This document shows positions 1,169 through 18,472 of a DNA stretch of 32,000 nt, piece by piece; the stretch's first letter is position 1; each line of letters opens with the position of its first letter. Location: positions 60,001 to 92,000 of the forward strand of contig NZ_BCZP01000014.1 of assembly GCF_001598795.1 (NCBI RefSeq). The letters are read 5' to 3'. Source of the DNA: Delftia acidovorans NBRC 14950. GTDB lineage: Bacteria > Pseudomonadota > Gammaproteobacteria > Burkholderiales > Burkholderiaceae_C. The notes under the pieces are model-generated. The model did not search any database, was not told where the DNA came from, and worked only from the letters and a program-made list of their open reading frames with translations. The position numbers and the translations under genes were made by a program.

Positions 1169-3133
1169 ATGAAAAAAACAATGGGAGGCGCCGCGCTCCG
1201 CGGCGCATTGGGAGTCATCGCCTGCGGGCTGGCAGGGGTGGGTGCCGTCCGGTCGGAAGTGGTATCCCGGGTCACGGCCCTGCCAGAGTCCGCCACGCGG
1301 GTGAACATGGGTGATGGCGGCCGCGTTCAGGTCACGCCGGCCCAGGTCAAGGACGGTGTTTCATACAACGGCTTCAGCCAGTTCGATGTGGGCAAGGCCG
1401 GGCTCACGTTCCTGAATGAGGGCGTCAAGGCACGGACCATCGTGGCCGAGGTGTTCTCCGCTGCGCCCTCCCATATCACAGGAACCATCGATGTCAATGG
1501 CCCCCGCGCCAATCTGATTTTTGCGAATCAGAACGGCATCCGCGTCAATGGCGGCAGCTTTGTCAATTTCGGCAGCGTTGCGCTGACCACGGGCGCCGTG
1601 ACGCTGCGCGATCAATTGCAGCCCTCGGGTTATGTCCAGCGGCTGGTGGATGTCCATACCAAGCAGGGCGAGATCGTGATTGGCGAGCAAGGGGTGTCAG
1701 GCAATCTGATCCGTCTGGAGATGATCGCCAAAAGCATTGCCCTGCAGGGTGCCGTCACCAACGAGTTCTCATCATCAAGCGCCCTGGTCCGCATGGTGGC
1801 CGGGGAATCCACGGCCCAGTTCGATACGGCGGCGTCGCCAACGGACAACTTGACGCCATGGGTCTACTACGAGGGAGGGAAGGCGCGCAGCACCGCATTG
1901 GCGGTGGACCTGAATGCGGATTCCAAGGTCACCTCCGGGCGTATCGAGATTCTGGTGACCGACCAGGGCGCCGGTGTGCGCAACCAGGGGCAGATGGTGG
2001 CCTCGGCCGGGGATTTCCGGCTGACCAGCACGGGACAGCTGGAGCAGATCGGCGGCAAGGTGCAGGCCCAGGGGCAGGTGGACATACGCTCCCGGGATAT
2101 CGCGCTGGGTTCGCGCGGCGACGAGACCAGCCTGCTGGCGGCCGGCAGCCGTGTCCGCCTCGAGGCCGAAGGGGCCATCCGCAACCTGGGCGGCGAGATC
2201 TCCGGCCAGCAAGGCGTGGGCGAGGCAGAGGATGCCCATGCCGTCGTGCTCAAGGCCGGTGGCGGCATAGAGCACAGGACGCCCGTGGGGGCCGCGAAAA
2301 CCGCGCTGATCTTCGGCAAGGAAGGCTCCGTGCTGCTGGACAGCGGGCAGGGCGTGGATTCCATCAACGCACGCATCGTATCCAACAGCGATCTGGTCAT
2401 TCGGGGAGCTGCGGATGTGCGCAACGAAAGCGTGCACATCGCCGGTGCCGGCCTGGAAGATTGGGCATCGCACAGCGTCTTCAAGCGCAGGAAAGGCTAC
2501 AGCGTGGACATGGGCGAGCTGGCCGATCCTGCCAACCAGGCCTACTGGGTGGCGCAAGGCAATGTGCAGGTCACGGCGCGCAACTTCTCCAACCTGGGCG
2601 GCCATGTGTTCTCCAACCAGGGCGGCATCAAGATAGAGGCGCAAGAGAGCGTCGTGACCAAGGCGCACAGCATTGGCGGATTCGAATACCGGCAAAGCTG
2701 CTTCCTGTTCGTCTGCAGGCGCACAGCCTCCTCCAACGAGGCGCTGGTGGGCGGGCAGATCATGGGCGCCGAATCGGTCGATATACGTGCTGGCGGGAAG
2801 ATCCTCAACGATGCCGGCCAGGTCTACGCAGGCAAGGGCATGACCCTGGAGGCTCCCGAGATCATCGCGCGAGGGCGCCCCGTGCATACCGTCATCCTGC
2901 GCGACAAGGGCCTCAAGGCCCTGTTCGGCGACACCTGGGCCAGGATCTATGCCACGGACCAGGGCGGCAGCTACACCGTCCAGCAAGGACGGCTGGTTCT
3001 CAAGGGGCTGGCATACCAGGATGGCGGGGTGTTGCAAGCCTCCGAAGGCGTGGACGGCGCCATCGAGGTGATTCGCAAGCCTTCCCGAGATGCGGTGCGC
3101 ATCGAGGACCACCTCGGCATCTTCTGGTGGTGA
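1169..3133 (+). CDS. Short TPS-domain exoprotein (filamentous-haemagglutinin N-terminal domain protein, 654 aa); a second TpsA-type cargo.
   Basis: The N-terminus MKKTMGGAALRGALGVIACGLAGVGA looks like a signal peptide. A TPS-like core follows: DGVSYNGFSQFDVGKAGLTFLNEGVKARTIVAEVFSAAPSHITGTIDVNGPRANLIFANQNGIRVNGG, where ANQNGI corresponds to the NPNGI motif; no NPNL loop is seen. The remainder is beta-helix-like G/A/V-rich repeats. The stop lies 5 nt before the tpsB ATG. Confidence 0.8.
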   Translation: MKKTMGGAALRGALGVIACGLAGVGAVRSEVVSRVTALPESATRVNMGDGGRVQVTPAQVKDGVSYNGFSQFDVGKAGLTFLNEGVKARTIVAEVFSAAPSHITGTIDVNGPRANLIFANQNGIRVNGGSFVNFGSVALTTGAVTLRDQLQPSGYVQRLVDVHTKQGEIVIGEQGVSGNLIRLEMIAKSIALQGAVTNEFSSSSALVRMVAGESTAQFDTAASPTDNLTPWVYYEGGKARSTALAVDLNADSKVTSGRIEILVTDQGAGVRNQGQMVASAGDFRLTSTGQLEQIGGKVQAQGQVDIRSRDIALGSRGDETSLLAAGSRVRLEAEGAIRNLGGEISGQQGVGEAEDAHAVVLKAGGGIEHRTPVGAAKTALIFGKEGSVLLDSGQGVDSINARIVSNSDLVIRGAADVRNESVHIAGAGLEDWASHSVFKRRKGYSVDMGELADPANQAYWVAQGNVQVTARNFSNLGGHVFSNQGGIKIEAQESVVTKAHSIGGFEYRQSCFLFVCRRTASSNEALVGGQIMGAESVDIRAGGKILNDAGQVYAGKGMTLEAPEIIARGRPVHTVILRDKGLKALFGDTWARIYATDQGGSYTVQQGRLVLKGLAYQDGGVLQASEGVDGAIEVIRKPSRDAVRIEDHLGIFWW

Positions 3134-3138
3134 ACCGC

Positions 3139-4836
3139 ATGAGCCACTGGATCTCCGCCGCGGGCATCTGCGCGCTGGCCCTCAGCCCGATGCTCGTCCA
3201 TGCACAGTCCGTGTCTGCGCGCGACCCCAACGACCAGATCATCCGCGAGCAGCAGGAAAAACTGCGCGAGGAAATGCTGCGCCGCTCCGCACCCGCCAGC
3301 ATTGAATTCGAGCAACCCGCTGCCGCAGCCGCAGGCATGGAAGACCGATTCCCCGAAGGCCTGCAGCCCCAGGGACCGGCCTTTCCCATTCATACCATCA
3401 GGCAAGACGGCATGGCGTTGCTGCCGGAGGCTGTCTTTGCCAGGGTCACCGCGCCCTTTGTCGGCCGCTCGATCGGGGTCGAACACATCAACGTGCTGCT
3501 GGAGCGGGTCAACCGGGCCCTGATCGCTGCGGGCTACACCACCTCGCGTGCCTACGTGGGCAACCAGAGCCTGCAGGAGGGCGTGCTGTCCCTCACCATC
3601 GTGCCGGGCCGCATCGAGCAATTGCTGTTCAACGGCACCCCCGTCGGTCTCGGCGACGATCAGGCGCTGGGCGTGCATCTGGCCCTTGCCATGAAGCAGG
3701 GCGACGTGCTGCGCCTGCGCGACATCGAGCAGTCGGTGGACCAGTTCAACCGCCTCAGGCGCAACAACGTGCAGGTGCAGATCCGCCCGGGCACGCAGCC
3801 GGGCGGCTCCATCGTCGAGTTCGTCAACCAGGCGGGCCAGGCCGCGCGCTACAACGTCTCGCTGGACAACCAGGGCGCGGCCGCCACCGGCCGCCTTCGC
3901 GTGCAGCTGGGCCTGGATGCCGGCAATGTGCTGGGCCTGATGGAGTCGCTGGGCGCCGGCCTGACCACCAGCACGGAAACCAACGCCCTGTATGGCACCT
4001 TCTCCGTGCCGCTGGGCTACGCCACGCTGTCGGCCATGGCTTCCGTGTCGGAATACCAGAACCTCATTGGCGACACCGCCCTGGTCCACGGCACATCGAA
4101 GACCTACACGCTGTCGCTGAGCCGCCTGCTGCAGCGCGACCAGAACAGCAAGACGGCCATGGACCTGAGCTTCTCGCACCGCAAGTCCGAGCGTTCCGTC
4201 AACAACATCTCGCTCAGCCCGCAGACCCAGGCCGTGCTGCGCCTGGGCATCAACCGCCTCACGCGCTTTCAAGCCGGACAGGGGCTGGGCCAGTGGACGG
4301 TGGATGCGGGCATCTCGCGCGGCATGCCCTGGCTGGACACCAACCGCGACCCGGCCGACCTGCCCCGGGAGGCCGCCCGCTACCGGTTCACCAAGCTGGA
4401 GCTGTCGGCATCGGTCGAGCGGCCGTTGGGCAGCCTCCTGACCTGGCGCTCGCGTGCGTTGGGCCAATGGAGCCGGCATCCGTTGTACTCGTCCGAGCAG
4501 ATCTTCGCCGGAGGCGTGGGCAGCGTGCGCGGATTTCCCGAATCGGCCGTTGGCGGCGACAAGGGCATGGTCTGGCGCAATGAATGGGCGTTGCAGCGGC
4601 CGCCCCAGATCCTGGGCGGGCAGATCCGCTACGAGCCTTACCTGTTTGTGGATGCGGCGCGGCTGTCCACCGTTGCAGACAGCCGCTCGCATGCCCTGGC
4701 CAGCGCGGGAGGCGGGCTGCGCATCGCCTTCGCGGGCGGCTTCGCCGAGCTGATCGCGGGCAAGCCGTTGCGCACACCCAGTGAAATGCCCAAGCCAGGC
4801 TGGCGTGTCAATGCCAGCCTGGCCTACCAGTTCTAG
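3139..4836 (+). CDS. cdiB: TpsB / CdiB outer-membrane two-partner-secretion transporter (ShlB/FhaC/HecB family), 565 aa.
   Basis: The true start is ATG 3139, in frame within track ORF 1858..4836. Signal peptide MSHWISAAGICALALSPMLVHAQS. POTRA-like segment FPIHTIRQDG...GYTTSRAYVGNQSLQEGVLSLTIVPGRIEQLLFNG. Conserved loop-6 motif GSVRGF. Barrel terminus ...NASLAYQF ending in an aromatic residue. Confidence 0.9.
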   Translation: MSHWISAAGICALALSPMLVHAQSVSARDPNDQIIREQQEKLREEMLRRSAPASIEFEQPAAAAAGMEDRFPEGLQPQGPAFPIHTIRQDGMALLPEAVFARVTAPFVGRSIGVEHINVLLERVNRALIAAGYTTSRAYVGNQSLQEGVLSLTIVPGRIEQLLFNGTPVGLGDDQALGVHLALAMKQGDVLRLRDIEQSVDQFNRLRRNNVQVQIRPGTQPGGSIVEFVNQAGQAARYNVSLDNQGAAATGRLRVQLGLDAGNVLGLMESLGAGLTTSTETNALYGTFSVPLGYATLSAMASVSEYQNLIGDTALVHGTSKTYTLSLSRLLQRDQNSKTAMDLSFSHRKSERSVNNISLSPQTQAVLRLGINRLTRFQAGQGLGQWTVDAGISRGMPWLDTNRDPADLPREAARYRFTKLELSASVERPLGSLLTWRSRALGQWSRHPLYSSEQIFAGGVGSVRGFPESAVGGDKGMVWRNEWALQRPPQILGGQIRYEPYLFVDAARLSTVADSRSHALASAGGGLRIAFAGGFAELIAGKPLRTPSEMPKPGWRVNASLAYQF

Positions 4837-4905: not shown

Positions 4906-7900
4906 ATGAAGAGGGAGCCCAGCATGCATGCACCGACCATGAGCCAGCAAAACCAACAGTCCTCCCCTGTGCCCGAGGAATCGAGAACCGCGCACCGCGC
5001 CCCTCGTTGGGCCCGGCGCACGGCGGCGTTCATGGCCGCTGTTTTCTGGTTGACTCAACTGCAACTGGTCATGGTTGGTACCGCTCAGGCCCAGCCGCAG
5101 CCGCCGGCCGGGCCAATCGCGGGCCCATTCGGCGGACCCATTGCCGACCCGCGCGCGCCGATGGCCTTCCAGCCCGGCATCCAGTCGCTGCCGGGTGGCG
5201 GTGCCCTGGTCAACATCACGGCGCCCAATGCGGCCGGGACCTCGCTCAACCAGTACGAACGCTTCGATGTGCCCACGTCCGGAGTCGTCCTCAACAACAG
5301 CCTCATCGGTGGCACCCCGCTGCTGGGCGGCACGGCAACGGCCAATCCGAACCTGTCCGGCGGACGCACGGCCAACACCATCGTCAACGAGGTCACCGTC
5401 ACCGGAACACCCGGCCAGATGCGGGGCACGGTGGAGGTTTTCGGCGCGCCCGCCACCGTCATCATCGCCAACCCCAACGGCATCACCTGCGATGGTTGCG
5501 GCGTGGTCAACACGCCCCGGCTCACCCTGAGCACGGGCCGGCCCACCTGGCTGGATGCCAACGGACAGGGCAGCACGTTCCAGGACGCGAAAAAGCAGGG
5601 CTTCGACGTGAACGGCGGCCGCATCGACGTGCGCGGCACCGGCATCGAGGGCACCGTGGGCCAGCTCGACCTGATCGGCGAGATGCTGAGCATCGACGCT
5701 CCCCTGCGCGCCCACTACCTGAACCAGGACATCTCCAGCATCAACCTGACGGCAGGCAAGACGCCCGCCATGCCGGGCTCCGCGCGTGCCGCTTCTGAAT
5801 CCCCGCAGTCCCCGCAGACCCCGGCTCCAGCGCAGTCGGGCCGGGCCCTGGCCATCGATGCCACGGCCCTCGGGGCCATGACCGCAGGCCAGATCCGTGT
5901 CATCTCCACCGATGCCGGCATGGGCGTCAACCTGCAGGGCCCGCTTCTGGCCTACCAGCGCGACGTGGAGATCCAGAGCGCTGGCCGCGTGAGCACGGGT
6001 TCCCTGGCTTCGGCACGGGACATCCGCATCGACAGCGATGGCTATGTCAGCGTTGCTGGAGAAGTCTCTGCGGGCAAGCAACTGCAGGTCAGCGGCCGCG
6101 ATGGCATGCAGTTCAACGGACCCGTTCAGGCGCAGGGCGACATCCGGCTGCAAAGCGCGCAGGGCGGCATCGCCGTGAGCGGCGATCTCGTGACCGCCGG
6201 CAGCCTGCAGGCGCGTGCGGGTGGCGACCTGCAGATGGGTTCTGGCGCAAGCACCGTGCAGGTTGCGGGCGCCACCACACTGGGTGGCAAAAACGTCCAC
6301 CAGACCGGCAAGCTGCTGGTGGGTGGCGACCTGGCCATCGACGCGGGCGAAGGTGCGTCCCTGGGCGGCGTCACCGCAGTCGCGGGCAGCCTGGACATGC
6401 GGGCCGGCCAAGGTGCGTTGCTGTCGGGGCAGTTGCAGGTCAACCGCAGCGCCAAGGTTTCGGCCGACACCATCGACGTCACGGGACGCAGCGTCGTTGG
6501 CGAGAACTTCCAGCTCGACGGTGTTCGATCGGTTGGCCTCATCGGCAGTGCCCAGGTGGGCCAGTCGCTGAGCATGAAGGCGGGCACCGTGGGCATCAAC
6601 GGTGACATCTCGGCCGGCGAAACCAATGTGGACGCCAGCCGGGTCGATCTCGGCAGCATGGAAAAAGGCCTGTCCATCGGCGGCGACCTGAACCTGCGCG
6701 TCGGCGACTCCCTGCATGCGCGTGGCGATGTCAGTGTCACGGGCAGCGCGAATCTTTCCAGCGGGGGCGACGCCCGGTTCGACGGTGCCATCACTGCCGG
6801 GCGCGACCTGGGCCTGAGCGCGGGTGGCGACCTGACCATGGCCGGCCCGGTCACATCGGGCGGCAAGGCCAGCTTCAATGCCGCAGGCAACCTCACGGCG
6901 CACGGCGACATCCTTGCGGGCGGCGGCATCACGGGTAAGGCGGGCGGGGACATCCGCCTGGGCGGGCAGGTGGGCTCGGCCGGTTCCCAGCAATGGAGTG
7001 CGGGCGGCGACTTCTCTGCCGACAAGGGCATGGAGGCTGCGGGCCTGTCCGTCGAGGGCCGCAACATCCGCATCGCCGGCGATGTGCTGTCCCAGGGCGC
7101 CGTCAACATGAAGGCAGGCCAGAAGCTCCAGCTGGGAGGCGACTTGCGCTCGGCAGGCAGCACCACCCTGAGCGCCGGCGCCGAAGGCATCACCGCCAAG
7201 TCCATCCTCACCAACGAAGACCTCGACATCCGCAGCCAGGGCAACATCGCCCTGGAGCAGGCGCAGGCCGCGCGCGACGTGCGCCTGGAATCCTCGACGG
7301 GCAGCATTGCAACGGGCAACCTGCTGGCCGGGCGCGATGCCGGCGTGACTGCGGCGGGCAATGTACTCGTCGATGGAACACTGCATGCCGGGCGCGATGC
7401 GCGCATTGCCGCCAAGGGTGATACCACCGTGCGCGGCGATGCCTTCGCCGGGCGCGACGTGGCGCTGGCTGGCAGCTCCATCAGCCTCGACAAGGGCCTG
7501 CAGGCCGGTGGAGGCATGCAACTGGAGGCCGGGGATGGCGGCATCGCCAGCCGGGGCCAGCTGGTTGCCAACCGGGGCATCACCGCCCTGTCCGCAGGCC
7601 AGATCGACGTCCAGGGGCCGGTGCTCTCCGGAGAGAACCTGCAACTGCGCGCAGGCCGTGACATCACGGTGGCGGGCGACATCGCGGCCATGGGCACCAT
7701 GGACATCCGGTCGGCACAGGCCCTCAAGGCCGAACGCCTGCAGGCCGGCGCCGATCTTGACGTTGCGGCTGCATCCGTCCACACCCGCAGCGTGCTGGCG
7801 CAGGGCCAGGCCACGCTGCGCGCCGACGATGCCCTGCGCATCCAGGGCGACCTGATGGGCGCCGGCATCGACGCCACGGCGCGCACGGGTGCCATCTCCG

Positions 7901-10900
7901 TCACCGGCACGGTGGCTACGCCAGGGTCGCTGAGCCTCAAGGCCGGCACCGATGCCGAGGCCGGCAAGGTGGTGGCCGGCACGGCCGACGGCCAGGCTGC
8001 CGTGATCGACGCGGGCGGCAACATCCGCCTGCAAAGCCTGGAGACCGGCGGCGCCTACCAGGCCCGCGCGGGAGGCAGCCACGAGGTGGCAGGCGCGGCC
8101 ACCGTCCAGGGACCGGCCGACATCGCCGCTGGCGCGGACATCACCGTGGGTGCAGATGCAGCCTTCGGCCAGGGCCTGGCCGCGAATGCCGGCGGACGCA
8201 TTGCCGTGGCCGGCGACACCCTGGTGCTGGGCGATGCACGCCTGCAAAGCGGAGCGGGCCAAAGCTACGGCGAGACTTCGGGCGGCAAGGCGGGCGGGCA
8301 GATGCGCGTCACCGGCAGGCTCGATGCCAGCGCCGGCCAGGGCTTCGCCGTGGGCAAGGAGCTGCGCGTCAACGACGGCATGGACATCGAGGCCAAGGCC
8401 GGTGCCATCGACGTGGGCGGCGGCCTCGCCACGCTGGGCGATGCGCGCCTGCAGGGCTCGGACGGCGTGCGCGTGGGCGGCGACCTGCAACTGCGCAAGG
8501 GTGAGCTTGCCAGCTCCGGCGGCGCCATCGCCATTGCAGGCAAGGTCTCTGCCGAGCAGGACCTGGGACTGAAGTCCCGGGGTGACATTGCCATTGGCGG
8601 TGCCACCGTCGCGCAAGGCCGGCTCACCGCCCGCAGCGAGGCTGGCAGCATCGGCTTTGGCGGCAACCTCGACGTGGCCGGCGACTTCGACGCCCATGCG
8701 GCGCAGAACCTGAGCTTTGAAGGCAACAGCCTCTTCCTGGGCGAGGCCCGGCTCAAGGCGGACAACGGTGCCATCCGCAACCGGGGCGACATGACCTTCG
8801 CTAAGGCGGTGGACATCGACACCGGCGGCGATCTCTCCAACGAAGGCCTGATCCAGTCGCGGCAGGACATCTCCATCCGCGCCCGCAATATCGACAGCAA
8901 CCTGGCCCGCGCTGGCGGCATCGTCACACCGGGCCAACTCACCGTCCAGGCCGGGGGCGCCACGCGCCTGGGCAGCCAGGGCAAATTCAGCGCCGGGCAG
9001 GACATGGCGCTGCAGGCGGCCGGCGGCACCAGCAGCCAGGGCACCCTCCAGGCGGGTGGCAAGCTCACCCACACCGGCTCCCTGTCGAGCAGCGGCAGCG
9101 TCGTGGCCGACGACATCACCATCGACGGCGCGCTGGGCAACCAGGGCGGCAGCGTCTATGCCCAGGGCAGCCTGGGCGTCTCGGGCAGCACCAGCAACAG
9201 CGGCAACATTGCCGCCAGCACCATCACCATGGCCGCCTTGGACAACAGCGGCCAGATCGGTGCGCAGGGCATCTCCCTGGGCGCCACCGGCAACTCGGGC
9301 AGCATCTCCGGCTCCAGCGTGGGCATAGATGGCAGCCTGAGCAACAGCGGCAGCATAGGCGCCAGCGGCTCGCTCGGCGTCTATGGCGGCTCCATCTCCA
9401 ACAGCGGCTCCCTGGCGGGCGGCGACGTCACCCTCAGCGGCAGCAGCATAGGCAACGATGGACAGATCCAGTCCTCGGGCTCCCTGAGCATCTCGGGCGG
9501 CAGCTTCGACAACGGGCTGACCGAATCGCGCAGCTGTGTCTCGGCCAGCGGCTGCGGCGCGGGCTCCGCCCCTGAAGACTGGCGCTACAGCCAGACCCCG
9601 GGCACCGTGCATGCGGGCGGTGCGCTCACCGTCAACGTCGGCAGCATGACCAACAAGGGCGTGGTCAGCGCAGGCAGCAGCGTCAATATCCAGGGCAGCC
9701 TCAATAACACGCGCAGCGTCAACGACCCCTACACTTCCGCAGGCGCCAGTGGTGGCGCCAGCACCGGCATCATCTCGGCCGGTGGCGACCTCACCATCTC
9801 GGGCCCCTCCGTGCAGAACGCGGGCGGGCAGATGCAGGCAGGCGGCGCCGTCAACATCACATCGGCCGGTGCCTTCAGCAATGGCGCCCCGGCCGAAGGG
9901 GTGACCGGCCAGATCCAGGGCAGCAGCGTCACCATCAACGCCGCCAGCATCGACAACCAGGGCACGCTGCTGGCCAAGAGCGGCGATGCGAAGCTCACCG
10001 CCAGCTCCGGCGGCATTGCCAACACCGGCACGGTGGCCGCCAGCGGCGGCCTGCAACTGCAGGCCAGCGGCGCGGTCAGCAACGGCGACGGTGCCAACCT
10101 GCTGGGCCAGGACATCCGCATCAAGGGCTCGGGTTTCAGCAACCAGGGTACGGTCTATGGCCAGGGCGGCGCGCCCGGCGAGATCGACATCAACACCACG
10201 GGTGGCTTCAGCAACAGCGGTGGCACACTTGTGGCGGGCGGCAAGCTCAACATCCAGTCCGGCGGCTACAGCAACAGCGGCGGCACCGTGGGCAGCCTGG
10301 GCGACGCCACCCTCACCATGGCAGGCGCCTATGGAGCCACCGGCAACGAACTGCTGGCCCTGGGCCACCTTCAGCTCAACGTGGGCGGCATCAACGTGGG
10401 CGCCTCGGAAAGCTGGTCCTATGGCGGCAGCTCCGTCGCCTGGACCGGCACCCTGCGCAACCAGGGCAGCGTCGCCATCGCCGGCAGTGCCAGCGGTTCC
10501 ATCCACAACGAAGCCACGGGCACGCGCAGGGGCAGCGGCGAACCCGACGTGCGCGACGGCACCTACGAGGTGCCCGACTACCCGGCCGCGCTGGCCGACC
10601 TCAAGGAAGTGCGCGTCATCGGCTACACCGACGTGGCGCAGCGCGCGCAGCTGTACATCGGCGGCGGCTTCGACGGCTCCCTGGTCAATGAGGCCTCGGA
10701 CGCCAGCGTGGGTGGCGGCAGCATCGAGCAGCGCAAGAAGAACCAGACCATCACCTGGGAGGGCAAGAACGCCGACGGGGACATCGTCACCGTCGAAGGC
10801 CTGGCCCGCAGCGTGCCGCGCCTGAACACCGGCAGCGGCAGCTCCACCATCACTCTGGTCGGGCCCGATACCGGCACCATCGTCGGCGATGCCATCACCA

Positions 10901-13900
10901 TCAATGGCGGCACCATCACCGTACGGCCCGGCATTGATCCCGCCACGGGCCTGCCCCTGGTCGTGGAAGCCCGCAACCGCGAGGTCAAGCCCGGCGAGGT
11001 GGCCAAGGGCCCCGACGGACAGGCCGTCAAGGGCGACGTCAAGACCGGCGATGCCGGCAAGGCCGACGCGCCCAGGGAATTCAAGGTCCTGGGCGGCGAC
11101 CCCGGCAGCATCGGCGCCGGCGACACCAAGGGCCAGGGCAGCGACATCAAGGGCCCGGGCGACGAAGGCCTGCCGCCCCGGACCTCCAGGCCGCTGGACC
11201 TCTCGCGCCCTGAACTGGCCACGCCCGAAGGCGGCGTGGCCGCCCTGCTGGGCGGCGGCAAGAGCGTGGCCTGGCCCGACTGGAAGCAGATGCAGATCGT
11301 GCCCGGCGGCATCAGCGCCAACGACCTGGAACTCAACCTCAACGGCCAGTTCATCAACCGGGGCCAGCTCGAAGTCACCAACAACCTGGCCATACGCGCC
11401 GCCGAAGGCATAGACAACTTCGGCGCCAGCATTCGCGCGGGCGGCTACACCAGCCTCAGCGGCGGCAGCCTCGACAACCGGGACGGCAAGATAGAGACCG
11501 GCACCCTGCTGACCTCCCTCAAGGGCGACATCGACAACAGCCGCGGCAGCATCGTCGCGCATGACGGCGGCTATCTGCAGGCCAGCGGCAATATCGCCGC
11601 CACCGATGGCCGCTTCGTCAGCGACGCGGGCAAGATCGTGCTGGACGCGGGCGGCAACATCGACCTGGTCGCCAGCAAGGTCGAGGGCAAGAAGGGCGCG
11701 GGCCTGTATGCCGACGGCGACATCCGCCTGGGCGCCACCGCCAAGGCCGAAAGCACGCACAAGAAAGAGGACCAGATCCTCGTCACCCAGCACTACGACG
11801 CGGACAACAACCTCACCAACCCAGAGATCCGCATCAAGATCGGCGAAACCCAGCGGCGCACCGACACCCTGACCCACACCGGCACCACCATCGACGGTGG
11901 CGAAGGCGGCGTCACGCTGCGGGCCAAGGGCGACGTGGTGGCCCTGGGCTCGCACATCAAGGCCGGTGAGGACGTTCTGGTGCAAGGCGCCAGCGTGCGC
12001 GTCGAAGCCCTGGTGGACAAGTCCAGCAGCCTGGAGGAAGAGCACCGCAAGAACTACGACCATGCGCTGTTCCAGCGCAGCGAATCCCTGTCGGGCGGAG
12101 AAATCGAGGCAGGCCGCAACCTGAGCATCGTGGCGAACGGCAAGGCCGACGCAGGCAAGGGCGACATCACCCTCAAGGGCGCCACCGTCACCGCCAAGGG
12201 CGACGCCAGCCTCATCGCCAGCCGCGACGTCAACCTGCAGGACATGCAGACCGAGCACGGCCGCTTCGAGGAAACCTACAGCAAGAAAAGCGGCTTCCTG
12301 AGCAAGAAGAGCACGCACACCGTGGAGGAAGGCGCCAGCAGCCTCAGCGAAGGCAGCGTGCTCAGCGCCAACAACATCTACCTGCAGGCCGGGCGCGACA
12401 TCAGTGTGACCGGCTCGCACGTGGTGGGCCAGGGCGACGTGGGCCTGGTGGCCGGGCGCGACGTGCAACTGCTGGCGGGCCAGGACAGCGCCGCCGCCAC
12501 CAGCCACAGCCAGACCAAGAAATCGGGCCTGTTCAGCGGCGGCGGCTTCGGCATCACGCTGGGTTCCAAGTCCGTCACCATCGACCGCAGCAACGAAAGC
12601 GTGCGCGCGGCAGGCTCCAGCGTGCAGGCGCAGGGCGGCAACGCCTCCATCGTGGCCGGCAACCAGTACCGCCAGACGGGCTCGGCCGTGCTGGCTCAGG
12701 GCGATGTGAACATCGTCGGCAAGAGCGTTGAGATCAACGAGGCGCGCGAGCTCGAGCGCGACAAGTTCGAGATGCGGGCCAAACAGAGCGGGCTGAGCGT
12801 CAGCATCAGCAACCCCGTGGTCAATGTCGTGCAAGGCGGCGAGACGGTCGCCCGCATTGCCGGGGCGACCGGCAAGACCAGCGATGCTCGCATGCAGGCC
12901 CTGGGTGCGGCCGCTGCCGGCATGGCGGCCTATGAAACCTATGGCAAGGCCAGCCAGCTCATCGCAGACCCCAGCAGTGCCACCAGCGTAGGCATCAGCC
13001 TCAGCCTGGGCAAAAGCTCCAGCCGCAGCACCAGCGAATACCAGGTCAACAGCGCCGTAGGCTCCCTGGTCAAGGCCGACGGCAACGTCAGCATCACGGC
13101 CACCCAGGGTGACGTCCACGTGCGCGGCAGCAGCGTGGAAGCCGGCAAGGACGTACGCCTGGCTGCGGACAAGGGCAACATCGTCCTGGAAGCGGCAGAA
13201 AACCGCTTTGCCGAGCAAAACAGCCAAAGCAGCAGCTCGGCCAGCGTGGGCGTGGCCTTCACCCTGGGCAGCAAGAACGGCTTCAGCGTCAATGTGGGGC
13301 TCAGCCAGGGCAAGGGCAGTGGCAGCGGTGAAAGCCTCAGCCACACCAACACCCACATCAAGGCAGGCGGCACGGCCAGCGTGCAAAGCGGCGGCGACAC
13401 CACGCTCAAGGGCGCCACCATCGTGGCCGACACGGTAAAGGCCGACATAGGCGGCAACCTCGCCATCGAAAGCCTGCAGGACAAGAGCACCTACAACGAG
13501 AAAAGCAGCAGCGCAGGCCTCAACGTCAGCCTGTGCGTGCCTCCCCTGTGCTACGGCCCCTCCAGCGTGGGCGGCAGCGCCGGGCGCACGCGCATCGACA
13601 GCGACTACCAGAGCGTGGTCGAGCAAAGCGGCATCCGCGCTGGCGACGGTGGCTTTGACGTCAAGGTCAAGGGCGACACCACGCTCAAGGGCGGCGCCAT
13701 CACCAGCACCCAGGTGGCGATGGACGACGGCAAGAACCGCTTTGAAACCGGCGGCAAGCTGACCACCAGCGACATTGAAAACCATGCGGAATATGACGCC
13801 AGCGGCTGGAGCGCAGGCGGCAGCGTGGGCTTCCAGGCAGGTGACCAGAGCACAGCCAAGACGGAAGAACAAAAAAAGGCCGCACTCAACACAGGCAAGG

Positions 13901-15381
13901 GCCTGACGGGCGGCAGTGCCGGCGTGGGTAGCGACAGCGGCAATGCCAGCAGCACCACCAAGGCCGGCATCAGCGGCGTGGCGGGTGACAGCGGCGCGCG
14001 CACGGGGGACAAGGAGACAGGCCTCAAGCCCATCTTCGACAAGGACAAGGTGCGCGAGAACGTCAATGCGCAGATCGAGATCACGCGGGAGTTTGGTTCA
14101 CGTGCGAGCAAGGCGGTGGGGGACTTTGCCGACAGCAAGCTCAAGGAGGCGATGGCCAACGGTGATGAGGCGGAAATCGAGAAATGGAAAGAAGGTGGGG
14201 CTGGCCGAGTCGCGCTGCACGCATTGGTTGGTGCGGCGGGCGGGGGATTGGCAGGAGCTGCCGGCGCGGGCCTGAGCCAGGTGGCTGTCGCGCATCTGGA
14301 CGAAACCTTGAAGGAGTTGGGCGTTGACGAAGGTGCGCGAAACACCCTGGTCGCCGTGGCTGGAACGGCCGTGGGGGCCGTGGCCGGTGGAGCAGCAGGG
14401 GCAGCGGCTTCGACCAATGCCACGCTGAACAACTTCCTCAACCACAAGGAGCTCACGGAACGGGCTAAGAGTGAGAGCGCCTGCCAGAAGGGCGACAAGG
14501 CGGCGTGCGGCGAGGTAAGCAAGCTGGACGCGCGTTCTGCTAAACGCAATGAAGATATCCGTAAAGGTTTGGCTCCAGCGACGGTGGATCAGAACCTGGA
14601 GATTCAAGAAGACCTTGGCACAGTGGTGACAGAGCTTGCCAAGTACAAGGATCAGCTATACCAGCAATTGGGGGCCACTGCAGATCCTCAGCGCAGAGCT
14701 GACCTGATGGGGCAGATCAACGCAGCAGACAACAATATCAAACAGTTGACTGTGCTGGGTCAGGATAATTTGCTGTACTTGTATGGTAAGACCAATGATG
14801 AGCAGTATTGGAGTGCCTATAAGCAATTGCAGGCGGCATCTAGTGGCAATGATGTGGCGGATGTGATAATGACCGGGGCTGCTTTTATTGGAAAGAATAG
14901 AAGGCCCGTTGCAAAAAATGGTGCGGAGAAATATGAGGATTTATCATCTTCGACAGACGGGCCTAAAGTAGAAGTGAAAGGCTCTGGGGAGACGAAAATA
15001 GCGCCTCCTGAAAATTCCTATGCTGTATATCCTCGAGGCCCTGGAGCTTCTGAGGGGCCAGTTCCTAAAGACTATGTAACGGTATCTCGATGGGTTTCAA
15101 AAGAAGAGGCAGCTCTTTGGATGCAAAACCAAGGCACAGCCATTCCTGCAAATGTCCCTAGAAACGGGACGCCTCAGGTGTATGTTACAGAGGGAGGCGC
15201 ACCATATCCTCCTGGTGCTAAAGGGGAAATCCGTATTGATTTTGCCGTGCCAAATGCGATGCTGCGTAAAGGGAATTCATCGAACAATTTTCAAATTCTT
15301 CAGCCTTCGTCAAGTACGCCTATTTATAATGTAAAGATCCATGTTCCTAATGGAATGGAAATTCCGACACTTAGAAAGTGA
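4906..15381 (+). CDS. cdiA: CdiA-type giant TpsA exoprotein / contact-dependent inhibition toxin (3491 aa from ATG 4906).
   Basis: The TPS domain carries both canonical motifs (..[23 protein letters not shown].. and ..[31 protein letters not shown]). More than 1500 aa of ~20-residue FHA-type repeats follow. An FHA-2-like part is present ([29 protein letters not shown]). A Gly/Ala-rich pretoxin region ends in [16 protein letters not shown]. The C-terminus is variable and lower in GC. The start is ambiguous: in-frame ATG 4924 has AGGGAG 6 nt upstream and may be the real start. Confidence 0.92.
   Translation: [3491 protein letters not shown]
14425..15378 (+). other. CdiA pretoxin boundary (LNN at 14425-14433, equivalent to VENN) plus the CdiA-CT toxin region (aa 3177-3491).
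   Basis: The motif ...[21 protein letters not shown]... matches the layout of PT-VENN domains (Gly/Ala-rich, then xxNNxLxxxE). Codon usage visibly shifts from about 14540 onward. Hand count of 14761-14820 gives 24/60 G+C, against 47/60 for 8401-8460 in the repeat region. Confidence 0.75.
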
Positions 15382-15671
15382 TGCAAGAAATGAAGGTCTC
15401 TAAAGATTTTGGTATCATCTTAAGAAAAGATGCCATTGCACTTAATTCTATAGATATTGATTTAATACTGAAGGAATTTAATTTTGAAAAATTATTTGAT
15501 GAAGATGAGTTTTTAATATCTCTTGGCCCTTTCTTCGGTTCGGAGAATTCCGAAGAATGCATAGTGTTTTTGAAAGAATTAGGTCTTTCATATATTGATG
15601 ATTTCTTTGTTTTGGAAGGGTATTTCCCCGATTGGTGTGATGTCTTTGTGAAGAAATCTGAGAATTTCTGA
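15381..15671 (+). CDS. cdiI: Candidate cognate immunity protein (CdiI), 96 aa, acidic.
   Basis: The ATG at 15381 shares its A with the cdiA TGA stop (TGATG). The track ORF starts 3 nt earlier, at GTG 15378. It is a small AT-rich ORF immediately after a polymorphic toxin C-terminus: MQEMKVSKDFGIILRKDAIALNSIDIDLILKEFNFEKLFDEDEFLISLGPFF...GYFPDWCDVFVKKSENF. I recognise no family; the call rests on position. Confidence 0.6.
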   Translation: MQEMKVSKDFGIILRKDAIALNSIDIDLILKEFNFEKLFDEDEFLISLGPFFGSENSEECIVFLKELGLSYIDDFFVLEGYFPDWCDVFVKKSENF

Positions 15672-15684
15672 TTAACAAGGTCCG

Positions 15685-15817
15685 ATGCCACAGCACAGCA
15701 CAGCACAGCACAGCACAGCACAGCACAGCACAGCACAGCACAGCACAGCACAGCACAGCACAGCACAGCACAGCACAGCACAGCACAGCCTGGGGACGCC
15801 ACATTGCATCTTCGCTC
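15685..15817 (+). pseudogene. 5' fragment of a lipoprotein-gene paralog, interrupted by the microsatellite.
   Basis: ATGCCACAG (15685-15693) and CACAGCC....GACGCCACATTGCATCT.CGCTC (15784-15817) match 16359-16396 of the intact lipoprotein gene (ATGCCACAGCCCAAAGACGCCACATTGCATCTCCGCTC). The match includes a 17-nt perfect run. Confidence 0.5.
15689..15788. repeat. Perfect pentanucleotide microsatellite (CACAG)x20.
   Basis: Counted directly: 100 nt, 20 uninterrupted CACAG units, from 15689 to 15788. It produces the artefactual CAVLC-repeat ORFs on the minus strand. Confidence 0.98.
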
Positions 15818-15853
15818 GCATTAAATGGTTATAGAATTTCTATTTGGTGAATT

Positions 15854-16243
15854 ATGAAGCTATGTATTAAATTTGAGAAAAATGGTTGGTTTGAGTATTT
15901 TATTAAAAATAAAAATATTCCTTGCATTTGTAAAATAAAAGGCAATGATTTTTCTGTGGAATTTTTTTCTCCATTGCCTGAGGCAGTAGGTACTGTGAAA
16001 GATTTCTCTAAAGAGGAAATAAATCTTAGAGCTCCATCATATGGAGGTGGGGTACATACACATAATTCTTTTGCGGAGATTAGTTTGATAGAGGTATCGC
16101 AAGATATTTATGAAATATCTGATCTTAGATTTTTTTATCAAACATCTGGATGGCACCAAATATTGGAGAATTTTTCTTTGGTGGAGGTTGTTGATGAGGA
16201 TTTGCCAGATTGGGTCAAAGATTTGGATAAAGGCAAGATTTGA
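15854..16243 (+). CDS. Small AT-rich hypothetical protein, paralog A (129 aa); orphan immunity-like.
   Basis: A clear paralog of 16997..17398. Shared blocks: I.FE.N.F.E..IKNK.IPC.C..KG..F.VEF..PL, GG..TH..F.EISL, DL.FF...GW..I.EN, PDW...LDK. It is preceded by a ~10-codon AT-rich coding remnant ending in TGA 3 nt before the ATG. Confidence 0.7.
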   Translation: MKLCIKFEKNGWFEYFIKNKNIPCICKIKGNDFSVEFFSPLPEAVGTVKDFSKEEINLRAPSYGGGVHTHNSFAEISLIEVSQDIYEISDLRFFYQTSGWHQILENFSLVEVVDEDLPDWVKDLDKGKI

Positions 16244-16277: not shown

Positions 16278-16808
16278 ATGAAAGACGAACGTTCTTTTTT
16301 GATCCTATGTCTTTCCGTTGCGCTGGCCGGTTGCGCCATCGAACCTCGCCGCAACTACATGCCACAGCCCAAAGACGCCACATTGCATCTCCGCTCCACA
16401 GGCATGCCCATGTCGGCAGGTTTTTCCATCAGCTCCGCCAGCACGGCGTGCGAAGGCTTTGAATTCGCAGGATCTGTTCGCGATGGAGGCGAGAGCGTGC
16501 TGCTGCCCTGGATTGCAGCGTTGAGCAACAAGCTCAGCGGCGTTCCAACTGTGCGAGAGGCTGCGGTGCCCGCAGATGCGCCAGTGCAGGTCAAAGGCTT
16601 TTCCTCCTGGCAAGACCAGTACAGCAGAGGTTCCTGTGGGCCGGTAACCAAGCGGTTCACTCCCACTGCTGATGGCGTCTACCGTGTGGATTTTGTCTGG
16701 GCTGGCGTGCGCAAGTGCGGGTTGCGTATTGTGGATATCAGCAGGCCTGATGAGCCAAGGGAAGTACCTGGCACGCCGCTGATCTGTCCTCGTCCGCCGG
16801 GGCTGTAG
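16278..16808 (+). CDS. Putative lipoprotein (176 aa), unknown function.
   Basis: Signal peptide plus lipobox: MKDERSFLILCLSVALAGC. From ~16317 onward the gene is much more GC-rich than the AT-rich modules on either side. Partial copies lie at 15685-15817 and possibly 18525-18632. Confidence 0.75.
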   Translation: MKDERSFLILCLSVALAGCAIEPRRNYMPQPKDATLHLRSTGMPMSAGFSISSASTACEGFEFAGSVRDGGESVLLPWIAALSNKLSGVPTVREAAVPADAPVQVKGFSSWQDQYSRGSCGPVTKRFTPTADGVYRVDFVWAGVRKCGLRIVDISRPDEPREVPGTPLICPRPPGL

Positions 16809-16996
16809 TTCATACGGTGTTCATAAGCCTTCTTCATTCCATTGTTGTAAATGGTGTGACTACTAAAGGTGCCAGGCAAAAGGTGGTGGAAATACTGGAT
16901 CAGTTGTCTTCTGGATGGCAATATTTTAGCCAGATTTGTAGCTCTAATAAAATATTGTCTGGTGATTTTATTGCTGCTAGAAAAGAGTGGAGTTAA
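16809..16996 (+). pseudogene. 5'-truncated coding remnant (about 62 codons) abutting paralog B; possible orphan toxin C-terminal tail.
   Basis: Hand translation of the frame ending at TAA 16994-16996 gives VHTVFISLLHSIVVNGVTTKGARQKVVEILDQLSSGWQYFSQICSSNKILSGDFIAARKEWS*. There is no ATG. The AT-rich sequence begins exactly after the lipoprotein stop. The TAA is directly followed by ATG 16997. Confidence 0.35.
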
Positions 16997-17398
16997 ATGA
17001 TTTTAAATATTGAATTTGAGGAAAATTTCTTCATGGAAAGTATTATTAAGAATAAATTTATTCCATGTGTTTGTAGGGTGAAAGGGCTTAATTTTACCGT
17101 GGAATTCTCCCGGCCGTTGAAAATGATGGCTACAGGATATATCCCGAATTTTAATCTGCAAGATATATGCGATAGATATTCTGCGGCTGCAGGTGGAGAG
17201 TATACTCACTATTGTTTTGGTGAGATTAGTTTGAATTATTTATCTGATAGTTCATTTGAGGTAATTGATCTGAAATTCTTCGATGAAATCTATGGCTGGA
17301 TAGATATTATTGAGAATTCGGTGTTGGCTGAGAAATTTAAAGAAGAGGATAGATATTATCCTGATTGGGCTAGAGAGCTGGACAAAGATAGGAAATGA
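16997..17398 (+). CDS. Small AT-rich hypothetical protein, paralog B (133 aa); orphan immunity-like.
   Basis: Paralog of 15854..16243 (roughly half of the first 41 aligned residues are identical by eye). GGAG sits 4 nt upstream of the ATG, and the start abuts the stop of the upstream remnant. Confidence 0.7.
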   Translation: MILNIEFEENFFMESIIKNKFIPCVCRVKGLNFTVEFSRPLKMMATGYIPNFNLQDICDRYSAAAGGEYTHYCFGEISLNYLSDSSFEVIDLKFFDEIYGWIDIIENSVLAEKFKEEDRYYPDWARELDKDRK

Positions 17399-17655: not shown

Positions 17656-18138
17656 ATGTTTTTCTGGAAAATAAAAGATCTCAAGAATGCTTTAATTCAT
17701 CGCGAGCTAACAGAAAAACAGGTATTTATTTATATTCTGATTTTCGTGCTGCTGAGCATTGTTGCGATGGAGATTACTCGCTATCTTCATCCTGATCGAG
17801 TGGGATTTTGGGACTATGTAGACTCTTTTTTGAGTATTTCTATTGTCCTTTGTGGAACTGTTTTTTCTTACCGTGCCAATGGAGGGTCGTCTGGCGTGGA
17901 TTTTTCTGCAAGATTCTTTAGTATCAGCCTTGTGGTAACTCTTAGGCACATGTTTTTTCTGATTCCCATTGCATTGATTTTCTATGCGTATACTACTTAT
18001 TCATACATTAAAGGAATGGGGATAAATCCAGGGCAGGTGGTGATGACAGGAGGGGTTGAGGTTGTTTTGCTTGGAATCTGGTGTATTAATATATACCGGT
18101 CCATTGTCAAAAATATCAGCGACGTGTCTAGAGCTTGA
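17656..18138 (+). CDS. Small integral membrane protein, about 4 TM segments (160 aa).
   Basis: GGAGGG lies upstream of the ATG. Hydrophobic stretches: VFIYILIFVLLSIVAMEI, FLSISIVLCGTVFSY, FFSISLVVTLRHMFFLIPIALIFYAY, VEVVLLGIWCINIY. Composition is AT-rich like the neighbouring orphan ORFs. Confidence 0.65.
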   Translation: MFFWKIKDLKNALIHRELTEKQVFIYILIFVLLSIVAMEITRYLHPDRVGFWDYVDSFLSISIVLCGTVFSYRANGGSSGVDFSARFFSISLVVTLRHMFFLIPIALIFYAYTTYSYIKGMGINPGQVVMTGGVEVVLLGIWCINIYRSIVKNISDVSRA

Positions 18139-18166
18139 AGTGATCTGAAAATGGGAGTATTGATCG

Positions 18167-18472
18167 ATGTTTGATTTAGATATTCTTGTGCCTATCGCTT
18201 TGGGTGTTTTGTATTATTCGTGGTTCCATGGGTTTCATGTAGCTTCGGAATATATGGATATCGTCCACAATTCTTCGGGCTGGAAATGCGTGTTGGTCGG
18301 TGTGATGGCTGGATTATTGCCGGGAGCCATTGTGCTTTGTATTTTTCTCTTGATTAGTTCAAAAGGAGATTCTGGCTTCCTGGCATTTGTAGTGCTCTCA
18401 TGTATCTGGTTTTATTTGAGAGCGGCAATGCTCACGGCCACCAAGAAAAGTAGTGCTTCACCAAACGAGTGA
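18167..18472 (+). CDS. Small integral membrane protein, about 3 TM segments (101 aa).
   Basis: GGGAG lies 9 nt upstream of the ATG. Hydrophobic stretches: ILVPIALGVLYYSWF, CVLVGVMAGLLPGAIVLCIFLLI, FLAFVVLSCIWFYL. It is the last AT-rich ORF before composition returns to high GC. Confidence 0.6.
   Translation: MFDLDILVPIALGVLYYSWFHGFHVASEYMDIVHNSSGWKCVLVGVMAGLLPGAIVLCIFLLISSKGDSGFLAFVVLSCIWFYLRAAMLTATKKSSASPNE

Follow-up and report, generated by a model that had tools for sequence, protein, structure and literature searches.

A cdiBAI locus of Delftia acidovorans with a predicted TreTu-like ADP-ribosyltransferase toxin in an exchanged toxin/immunity cassette

Which toxin does the CdiA protein of Delftia acidovorans carry at its C-terminus, how might it act in a target cell, and how did it come to be joined to the protein that delivers it? 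These questions are raised by a stretch of 32,000 nucleotides (nt) from strain NBRC 14950 (contig NZ_BCZP01000014.1, positions 60,001 to 92,000 of the forward strand), hereafter the window, which holds the toxin/immunity end of a contact-dependent growth inhibition (CDI) locus with the E. coli gene order, cdiBAI. Coordinates are those of the window, and + denotes its forward strand. In the favored reading, to which a probability of about 0.68 is assigned, the variable C-terminal region (CT) of CdiA opens at an LNNF boundary and consists of a reusable entry-type module followed by an ADP-ribosyltransferase (ART) toxin homologous to TreTu, the toxin is paired with a linked immunity protein, CdiI, and the cassette they form has been swapped. 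The locus is a recognizable kind of bacterial weapon in a variant form without earlier characterization.

CdiA, the contact-dependent inhibition effector, is a protein of 3491 amino acids (aa) (4906-15381, +; stop codon TGA at nt 15379-15381). In Pfam searches it displays a two-partner-secretion (TPS) domain (aa 101-363, expect value (E) 1.3e-33), the filamentous-haemagglutinin repeats Fil_haemagg and Fil_haemagg_2 (E 1.3e-60 for the latter), and DUF6862. Adjoining it is cdiB (3139-4836, +), which is recognized by its Pfam domains as encoding an Omp85/ShlB-type TPS transporter of 565 aa. POTRA_2, POTRA_3 and ShlB (ShlB E 1.2e-66) are located in the C-terminal part of a longer open reading frame (ORF; 1858-4836), within which an in-frame Met at nt 3139 precedes the signal-peptide-like sequence MSHWISAAGICALALSPMLVHA. 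An effector with TPS and filamentous-haemagglutinin repeats next to a POTRA/ShlB transporter, together with a variable CT followed by a small cognate immunity gene, characterizes the locus as CDI.

The C-terminal toxin domain and its relation to TreTu

The last 128 aa of CdiA (aa 3364-3491; 14995-15378, +) constitute an ART-fold domain that shares homology with TreTu, an Rhs toxin of Salmonella, and is a divergent relative of it; sequence profiles, AlphaFold2 models and Foldseek comparisons place it in the TreTu superfamily. The initial annotation had noted a loose resemblance to HYD1- or TreTu-like ART toxins and had proposed profile comparison, structure prediction and Foldseek as checks. 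The TreTu alternative is upheld by sequence profiles, by profile-profile comparison and by fold, with hhalign, AlphaFold2 and Foldseek all leading to TreTu, whereas no Tox-ART-HYD1 match is found in Pfam at E<=1. A profile of ten relatives retrieves the TreTu structures 7ZHL/7ZHM as its best match in the PDB (E 3e-4, the next match reaching only 0.04), and alignment of the toxin family with the TreTu clade by hhalign yields 98% probability (E 1.6e-13 over 83 columns). Pfam TreTu_C (PF24691) matches the window toxin directly at E 9.8e-5, and a more distant relative, an Rhs protein (P0134), passes this family at 44 bits. Among 1.84 billion representative proteins, the ten-relative profile detects 160 at E<=1e-3, and the weaker matches include proteins 41-45% identical to TreTu. 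Of 121 full-length matches, 120 have the domain ending no more than 15 residues from the C-terminus, and it is carried by CdiA-type, Rhs and Tc-type proteins, among others. Three further proteins (P0122, P0148 and P0152) and the PDB "Pizza" propellers match the GT..P..V....VYVT segment only and are treated as repeat-protein false positives. A fold and a probable chemistry can thereby be attached to a toxin family that is mostly blank in databases: 10 of its 12 closest relatives have no Pfam domain, and the toxin itself matches nothing in NCBIfam or PADLOC.

Structure prediction by AlphaFold2 gives a predicted local distance difference test score (pLDDT) of 80.7 with 10 sequences, and a pLDDT of 91.4 with a predicted template modeling score (pTM) of 0.86 with 36. 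Both models feature the order beta1-alpha1-beta2-beta3-beta5-beta6 plus an extra N-terminal strand, and for both, TreTu is the top Foldseek match in the PDB (probability 0.99-1.00, template modeling (TM) score 0.47-0.57). The next-best matches are domain 4 of CNFy and the PARP-like ART domains of RCD1 and PARP10, which differ from TreTu in their lower probabilities (0.3-0.94), TM-scores of about 0.4 and lack of sequence similarity. CNFy (CNFgamma) has also been reported among the closest structural neighbors of TreTu (PMC9825190).

TreTu and its immunity protein TriTu (Rhs-main of Salmonella Typhimurium; 7ZHL, 7ZHM; PMC9825190) share several features with the Delftia pair. Both toxins are small (about 115-130 aa) C-terminal polymorphic-toxin domains with an ART split-sheet fold, both have the (V/I)(E/D)F(x)VP and I(V/L)xP blocks, and in both cases the immunity gene is located directly downstream. 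They differ in delivery, the Delftia toxin being carried on CdiA (type V secretion) and TreTu on an Rhs protein of the type VI secretion system. TreTu requires R6, E12, H31 and W68, as each of the substitutions R6A, E12A, H31A and W68A inactivates it, and S25 and F41 play a lesser role (PMC9825190). R6 and E12 are adjacent at the site of nicotinamide adenine dinucleotide (NAD+) binding, and both are kept in the window toxin. R3395 (nt 15088-15090), in the GRW/SRW motif on strand 1, corresponds to R6, and E3401 (nt 15106-15108), on helix 1, corresponds to E12, with the same six-residue spacing. The Arg is present in all 122 family members (122/122) and the Glu in 120 of 122. Judged from alignment and model, the toxin is probably an NAD+-using ART.

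Several observations weigh against this assignment. The window toxin scores 23.4 bits, under the TreTu_C gathering cut-off of 27, and its close relatives P0023, P0046, P0047 and P0058 show no TreTu_C match at E<=0.001. The split beta-sheet of ARTs is seen in the predicted model only, for which Foldseek TM-scores are just about 0.5 and E-values about 6e-3. Moreover, two of the three residues of the triad proposed for TreTu (R-H-h), His31 and Trp68, are not kept. The position of W68 is occupied by Asn3461, in a column that holds Trp in 97 and Asn in 11 of the 122 family members, Asn being typical of the subclade of the window (NNF); H31 is aligned with Gln3424 by HMMER or with Tyr3426 by hhalign.

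Target recognition is a further point of departure from TreTu. In the published TreTu model, R80 and K85 (in SIEGRLAKRKG) dock on helix D of EF-Tu, and the double mutant is inactive. The corresponding 13-residue segment, between GPD and PVPE, has shrunk to 4 residues (SSST) in the window toxin, and the AlphaFold2 model has no helix there. With this basic C-terminal docking helix missing and other residues at the W68 and H31 positions, the toxin probably does not recognize its target as TreTu recognizes EF-Tu. The full TreTu mechanism, in which the toxin would mono-ADP-ribosylate EF-Tu at Asp21 and arrest translation, is consequently regarded as unlikely. TreTu is indeed the closest characterized homolog by both sequence profile and fold, with conserved R6 and E12 equivalents, but in addition to these losses the Delftia family possesses a conserved N-terminal YPRGxGAxxGPxPxGY extension, including the added strand, that has no TreTu counterpart, and its immunity protein is unrelated in sequence to TriTu.

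Loss of a protein-docking helix leaves the class of substrate open, and several interbacterial ART toxins are known to target RNA (PMC13617354). Even so, ADP-ribosylation of a nucleic acid (ribosomal RNA, transfer RNA or DNA) instead of a protein, as by Tre23, RhsP2 and TreThr, appears rather improbable here, given that the window toxin is no more similar to these three than to TreTu and that they are not among its top Foldseek matches. The retention of the fold and of Arg and Glu at the NAD+ site, combined with the loss of the TreTu docking features, would also suit an NAD(P)+ glycohydrolase on an ART fold, which would deplete the cofactor as Tse6/TNT-type toxins do and transfer nothing. NADase toxins on ART-related folds have been described, with Tse6 as a cited case (PMC13617354); however, no Tse6/TNT-type match occurs among the Pfam or Foldseek results and the nearest relative, TreTu, is a true transferase, which makes such an activity very unlikely.

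Within the preferred assignment as a TreTu-homologous ART, it is tentatively proposed, at somewhat less than even odds, that the window toxin belongs to a sister clade of TreTu without annotation. This clade would comprise approximately 160 clusters at 50% identity and represent a "minimal" ART without the docking helix, equipped with its own Gly-rich N-terminus and a strictly linked immunity family, while the Delftia/Burkholderia subclade would have an altered catalytic pocket, in which Arg-Glu persists and Asn stands in for Trp. If this holds, the toxin acts on a target different from EF-Tu Asp21 and is a CDI-delivered ART of a type new to experiment. Because the target-docking helix of TreTu is lost, the clade is well suited to the search for a new ART target, with R3395, E3401 and N3461 as candidate key residues.

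Boundary motif, entry-type module and immunity gene

The Gly/Ala-rich region of CdiA terminates in ATLNNFLNH, and translation locates there the motif LNNFL (aa 3174-3178; 14425-14439, +), the counterpart of VENN at the border of the variable CT. Its description as a VENN variant in the initial annotation agrees with both position and pattern: the motif stands at the VENN position of E. coli-type CdiA, closes the conserved body, keeps Asn-Asn with an aromatic residue next to it, and is directly followed by the variable CT. In Burkholderia gladioli CTs, ETLNNWLNH is found at the matching position. Against membership in the CDI-type PT-VENN family, PT-VENN (PF04829) is undetectable by Pfam on aa 2901-3213 even at E<=10; DUF637 likewise has no match in the pretoxin region. 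LNNFL is therefore a positional analog of VENN and not a recognized VENN domain.

Burkholderia-type CDI systems (bcpAIOB) reportedly use yet another boundary, Nx(E/Q)LYN. They resemble the Delftia locus in having a betaproteobacterial CdiA, a non-VENN boundary and orphan CT/immunity modules downstream, which are seen on the B. gladioli sequence L002, whereas Delftia differs in its cdiBAI order and in its motif, which is LNN(F/W)LNH and not LYN. The E. coli-type CdiA-CT, such as that of EC3006 (PMC9424206, PMC7858069), has in common with the Delftia CT the cdiB-cdiA-cdiI order, the Asn-Asn plus aromatic residue at which the CT opens, an N-terminal CT domain with a Cys pair that is found before different toxins, and a C-terminal toxin neutralized by CdiI, a role that is predicted for Delftia by analogy. 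Unlike the E. coli type, the Delftia protein lacks the PT-VENN Pfam domain, has the motif LNNF, and carries as its N-terminal CT domain DUF6862, a family without a characterized member or a known inner-membrane receptor.

The CT is bipartite, as had been suspected from the sequence: approximately 165 aa after the motif are common to a sister allele (L001, described below), and the final 128 aa make up a distinct module that also terminates many unrelated carrier proteins. The N-terminal CT domain (aa 3177-3338; 14434-14919, +) combines DUF6862 (aa 3181-3248, nt 14446-14649; E 2e-6, above the Pfam threshold) with the stretch initially read as helical, and ends at ...FIGKNRR (around aa 3338), where L001 homology stops. 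Between it and the toxin lies a linker (aa 3339-3363; 14920-14994, +), delimited by this end of homology and by the APPPNTY at which the toxin module of B. gladioli starts, the junction in that species being just before it.

Reuse of the N-terminal CT domain with different toxins is observed twice. It shares 72-97% nucleotide identity with L001, which has a different toxin, and in B. gladioli the analogous LNNWLNH-DUF6862 domain precedes one toxin in a 5068-aa cdiA product and a TreTu-like toxin in the orphan P0006. Cys3193 and Cys3201, at a spacing of 8, also occur in the B. gladioli domains and are candidates for a disulfide pair. The loss of VENN, the newly N-terminal Tyr and a disulfide are all important for import by the PtsG-dependent entry domain (PMC9424206), and the Delftia CT resembles that domain in module reuse, in the aromatic residue after Asn-Asn and in the Cys pair. 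Because of this analogy with a helical, disulfide-stabilized entry domain, the N-terminal CT domain is considered a putative cytoplasm-entry domain; it counts against this role that position and modularity are its whole basis and that the domain has no solved relative. Its sequence gives only weak apolipoprotein-like helical matches, and a phmmer search of the single CT sequence against the PDB returned only apolipoproteins, which were judged spurious. A literature search for DUF6862 retrieved no papers. In B. gladioli (L002, 1-12993), a series of orphan modules comes after the 5068-aa CdiA, among them the TreTu-like CT P0006 with its immunity gene, fragments of CTs that contain DUF637, and the pair Gln_amidase/Imm35.

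The cognate immunity gene cdiI (15390-15671, +; 93 aa), assigned through its linkage to the toxin family, starts 9 nt past the cdiA stop codon. An ORF at 15381-15671 had been pointed out downstream of the CT; the gene is indeed present, but its start is most likely the ATG at 15390 and not 15381. An ORF finder lists GTG 15378 as the start, and the ATG is favored over it as well. The product is 100% identical to a 93-aa protein (P0162), and a homolog directly follows the toxin in every one of the 15 species-representative genome loci that encode it (15/15; E 8e-15 to 4e-48), which belong to Burkholderiales, Pseudomonas, Frateuria, Rhodomicrobium and Myxococcota, as well as in B. gladioli. CdiI has no match in Pfam, NCBIfam, PADLOC or the PDB, so that an immunity family without annotation is defined here. 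Two profiles of this family give no match at E<=10 to the 7ZHM chains (TriTu), and at this sequence level the two immunity families are unrelated. In P0009 and in L022 (739-1047), the toxin and the immunity homolog are in one frame or one called protein, which could be a genuine fusion or else result from a frameshift or an artifact of gene calling. A scan for promoters and terminators downstream of cdiA gives results at chance level.

A mechanism for the complete system can be proposed along these lines. After receptor binding, the CT would enter the target periplasm and be released after LNN, and its N-terminal domain would carry the toxin across the inner membrane. In the cytoplasm, the toxin would use NAD+ to ADP-ribosylate an essential target, and CdiI would block it by tight binding.

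Cassette exchange relative to a sister allele

The closest CT relative in a search of 5.8 billion proteins, P0001, is encoded on a 2-kb metagenome contig (L001) that represents a sister allele of the locus. Across nt 13975-14465 of the window, the two alleles show only four mismatches (13995, 14019, 14289 and 14355), and the last 110 nt of this stretch, motif included, are identical. Mismatches resume at 14466, which is 41 nt past the first base of the LNNFL motif, and become dense from 14502-14512, a transition that extends from 14 to 29 codons past the motif. Identity amounts to 72-88% across 14485-14574 and 85-97% across 14575-14800, the alleles are unrelated between about nt 14850 and about nt 15850, and 98-100% identity is restored from nt 15856 up to at least 16395.

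In L001, the C-terminal toxin of cdiA is Peptidase_C39-like (E 8.5e-9). The gene that follows this allele after 4 nt is approximately 100% identical in DNA to a window ORF of 129 aa (15854-16243, +; GC content 0.32), which this match identifies as the orphan immunity gene of the displaced C39-like peptidase toxin. Therefore, one lineage has replaced its entry, toxin and immunity cassette while keeping the former immunity gene, and the swap is recent. The cassette has been exchanged by recombination relative to the sister allele, and the window and L001 together provide a clear case from nature in which a CT was replaced and the earlier immunity gene stayed behind as an orphan.

Base composition provides a second view of the junction. 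GC content at third codon positions (GC3) is 0.87 at aa 1-3100 and a host-like 0.89 in the 36 codons at aa 3174-3209. By maximum likelihood, the first change point falls at aa 3210 (14533-14535, +); one change point improves on none by 42 log-likelihood units, and GC3 in this model passes from 0.78 to 0.41. A second, weaker step is placed at aa 3325 (nt 14878), and the two-change model yields three segments with GC3 of 0.78, 0.55 and 0.32. The same three-tier pattern is present in L001, where the first drop occurs around 45-50 codons past the motif. Total GC content is 31-43% in cdiI and the downstream small ORFs, in comparison with 69% in the cdiA body and ggt. The initial annotation had placed a codon-usage break about 35 codons past the motif, at "about 14540", and had located the recombination joint downstream of the motif. 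The change point at nt 14533 agrees with the former, and the latter is consistent with a codon-usage break and an allelic divergence that both begin past LNNFL; these data mark the onset of divergence and not strand exchange itself, as a crossover is possible anywhere in the stretch shared by donor and recipient.

Alternatively, the GC3 step might stem from amino-acid or expression constraints without recombination, with LNNFL itself as the true joint. Crossovers do occur within shared sequence, which would allow the exchange to be placed at any point of the identical run 14356-14465, motif included. However, GC3 reports on silent positions, and a drop of about 0.35-0.4 with a likelihood gain of the size given above speaks against constraint; furthermore, the sister allele is identical for 41 nt past the motif start and then 12-28% different while still GC-rich. 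An origin of the step in constraint alone is thus highly improbable. The divergence of L001 in DNA that is still GC-rich shows separate exchange layers within the entry domain. Since the window and L001 are both GC-rich yet different at nt 14466-14533, the CT is a mosaic that several exchanges have produced, with their boundaries located within the N-terminal CT domain. Exchange boundaries inside the entry domain, and not at the boundary motif, bear on how CDI toxin repertoires diversify.

Repeat, orphan modules and neighboring genes

In the interval from cdiI to the orphan immunity gene, not far from the right-hand limit of the exchanged cassette, Tandem Repeats Finder detects a perfect (CACAG)x20 microsatellite (15689-15789, no strand assigned; 100% matches). 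Copies of the locus on six metagenome contigs (L005-L010) are 99.6-99.7% identical to the window across the CT and have only 3 units of this repeat, a difference that reflects either a hypervariable repeat or collapse in short-read assembly.

Further downstream, a decayed orphan CT/immunity module occupies 16817-17398 (+). It is composed of the 3' remnant of a C39-like toxin (16817-16996; 59 codons, 47% identical to P0001 aa 437-487, E 8e-14) and an immunity gene (16997-17398; 133 aa) that is a paralog of the 129-aa orphan gene (43% identity, E 2e-34). The ORFs at 15854-16243 and 16278-16808 are exact matches to the consecutive Delftia acidovorans GenBank entries QQB51076.1 and QQB51077.1. The second of these encodes 176 aa with a lipoprotein-like N-terminus, has 59% GC, lies between the two low-GC orphan modules, contains no Pfam domain, and is found only as "hypothetical protein" in Delftia species. 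Two small low-GC ORFs at 17656-18472 (160 aa and 101 aa) appear hydrophobic and membrane-spanning by eye and have no significant Pfam match; they may be additional orphan immunity genes, directed for instance at membrane-active CDI toxins.

On the other side of the locus, 5' of the cdiB transporter gene, a 654-aa ORF (1169-3133) has its own TPS domain (E 1.8e-30) and stops 6 nt before cdiB, and is a short TpsA-like gene.

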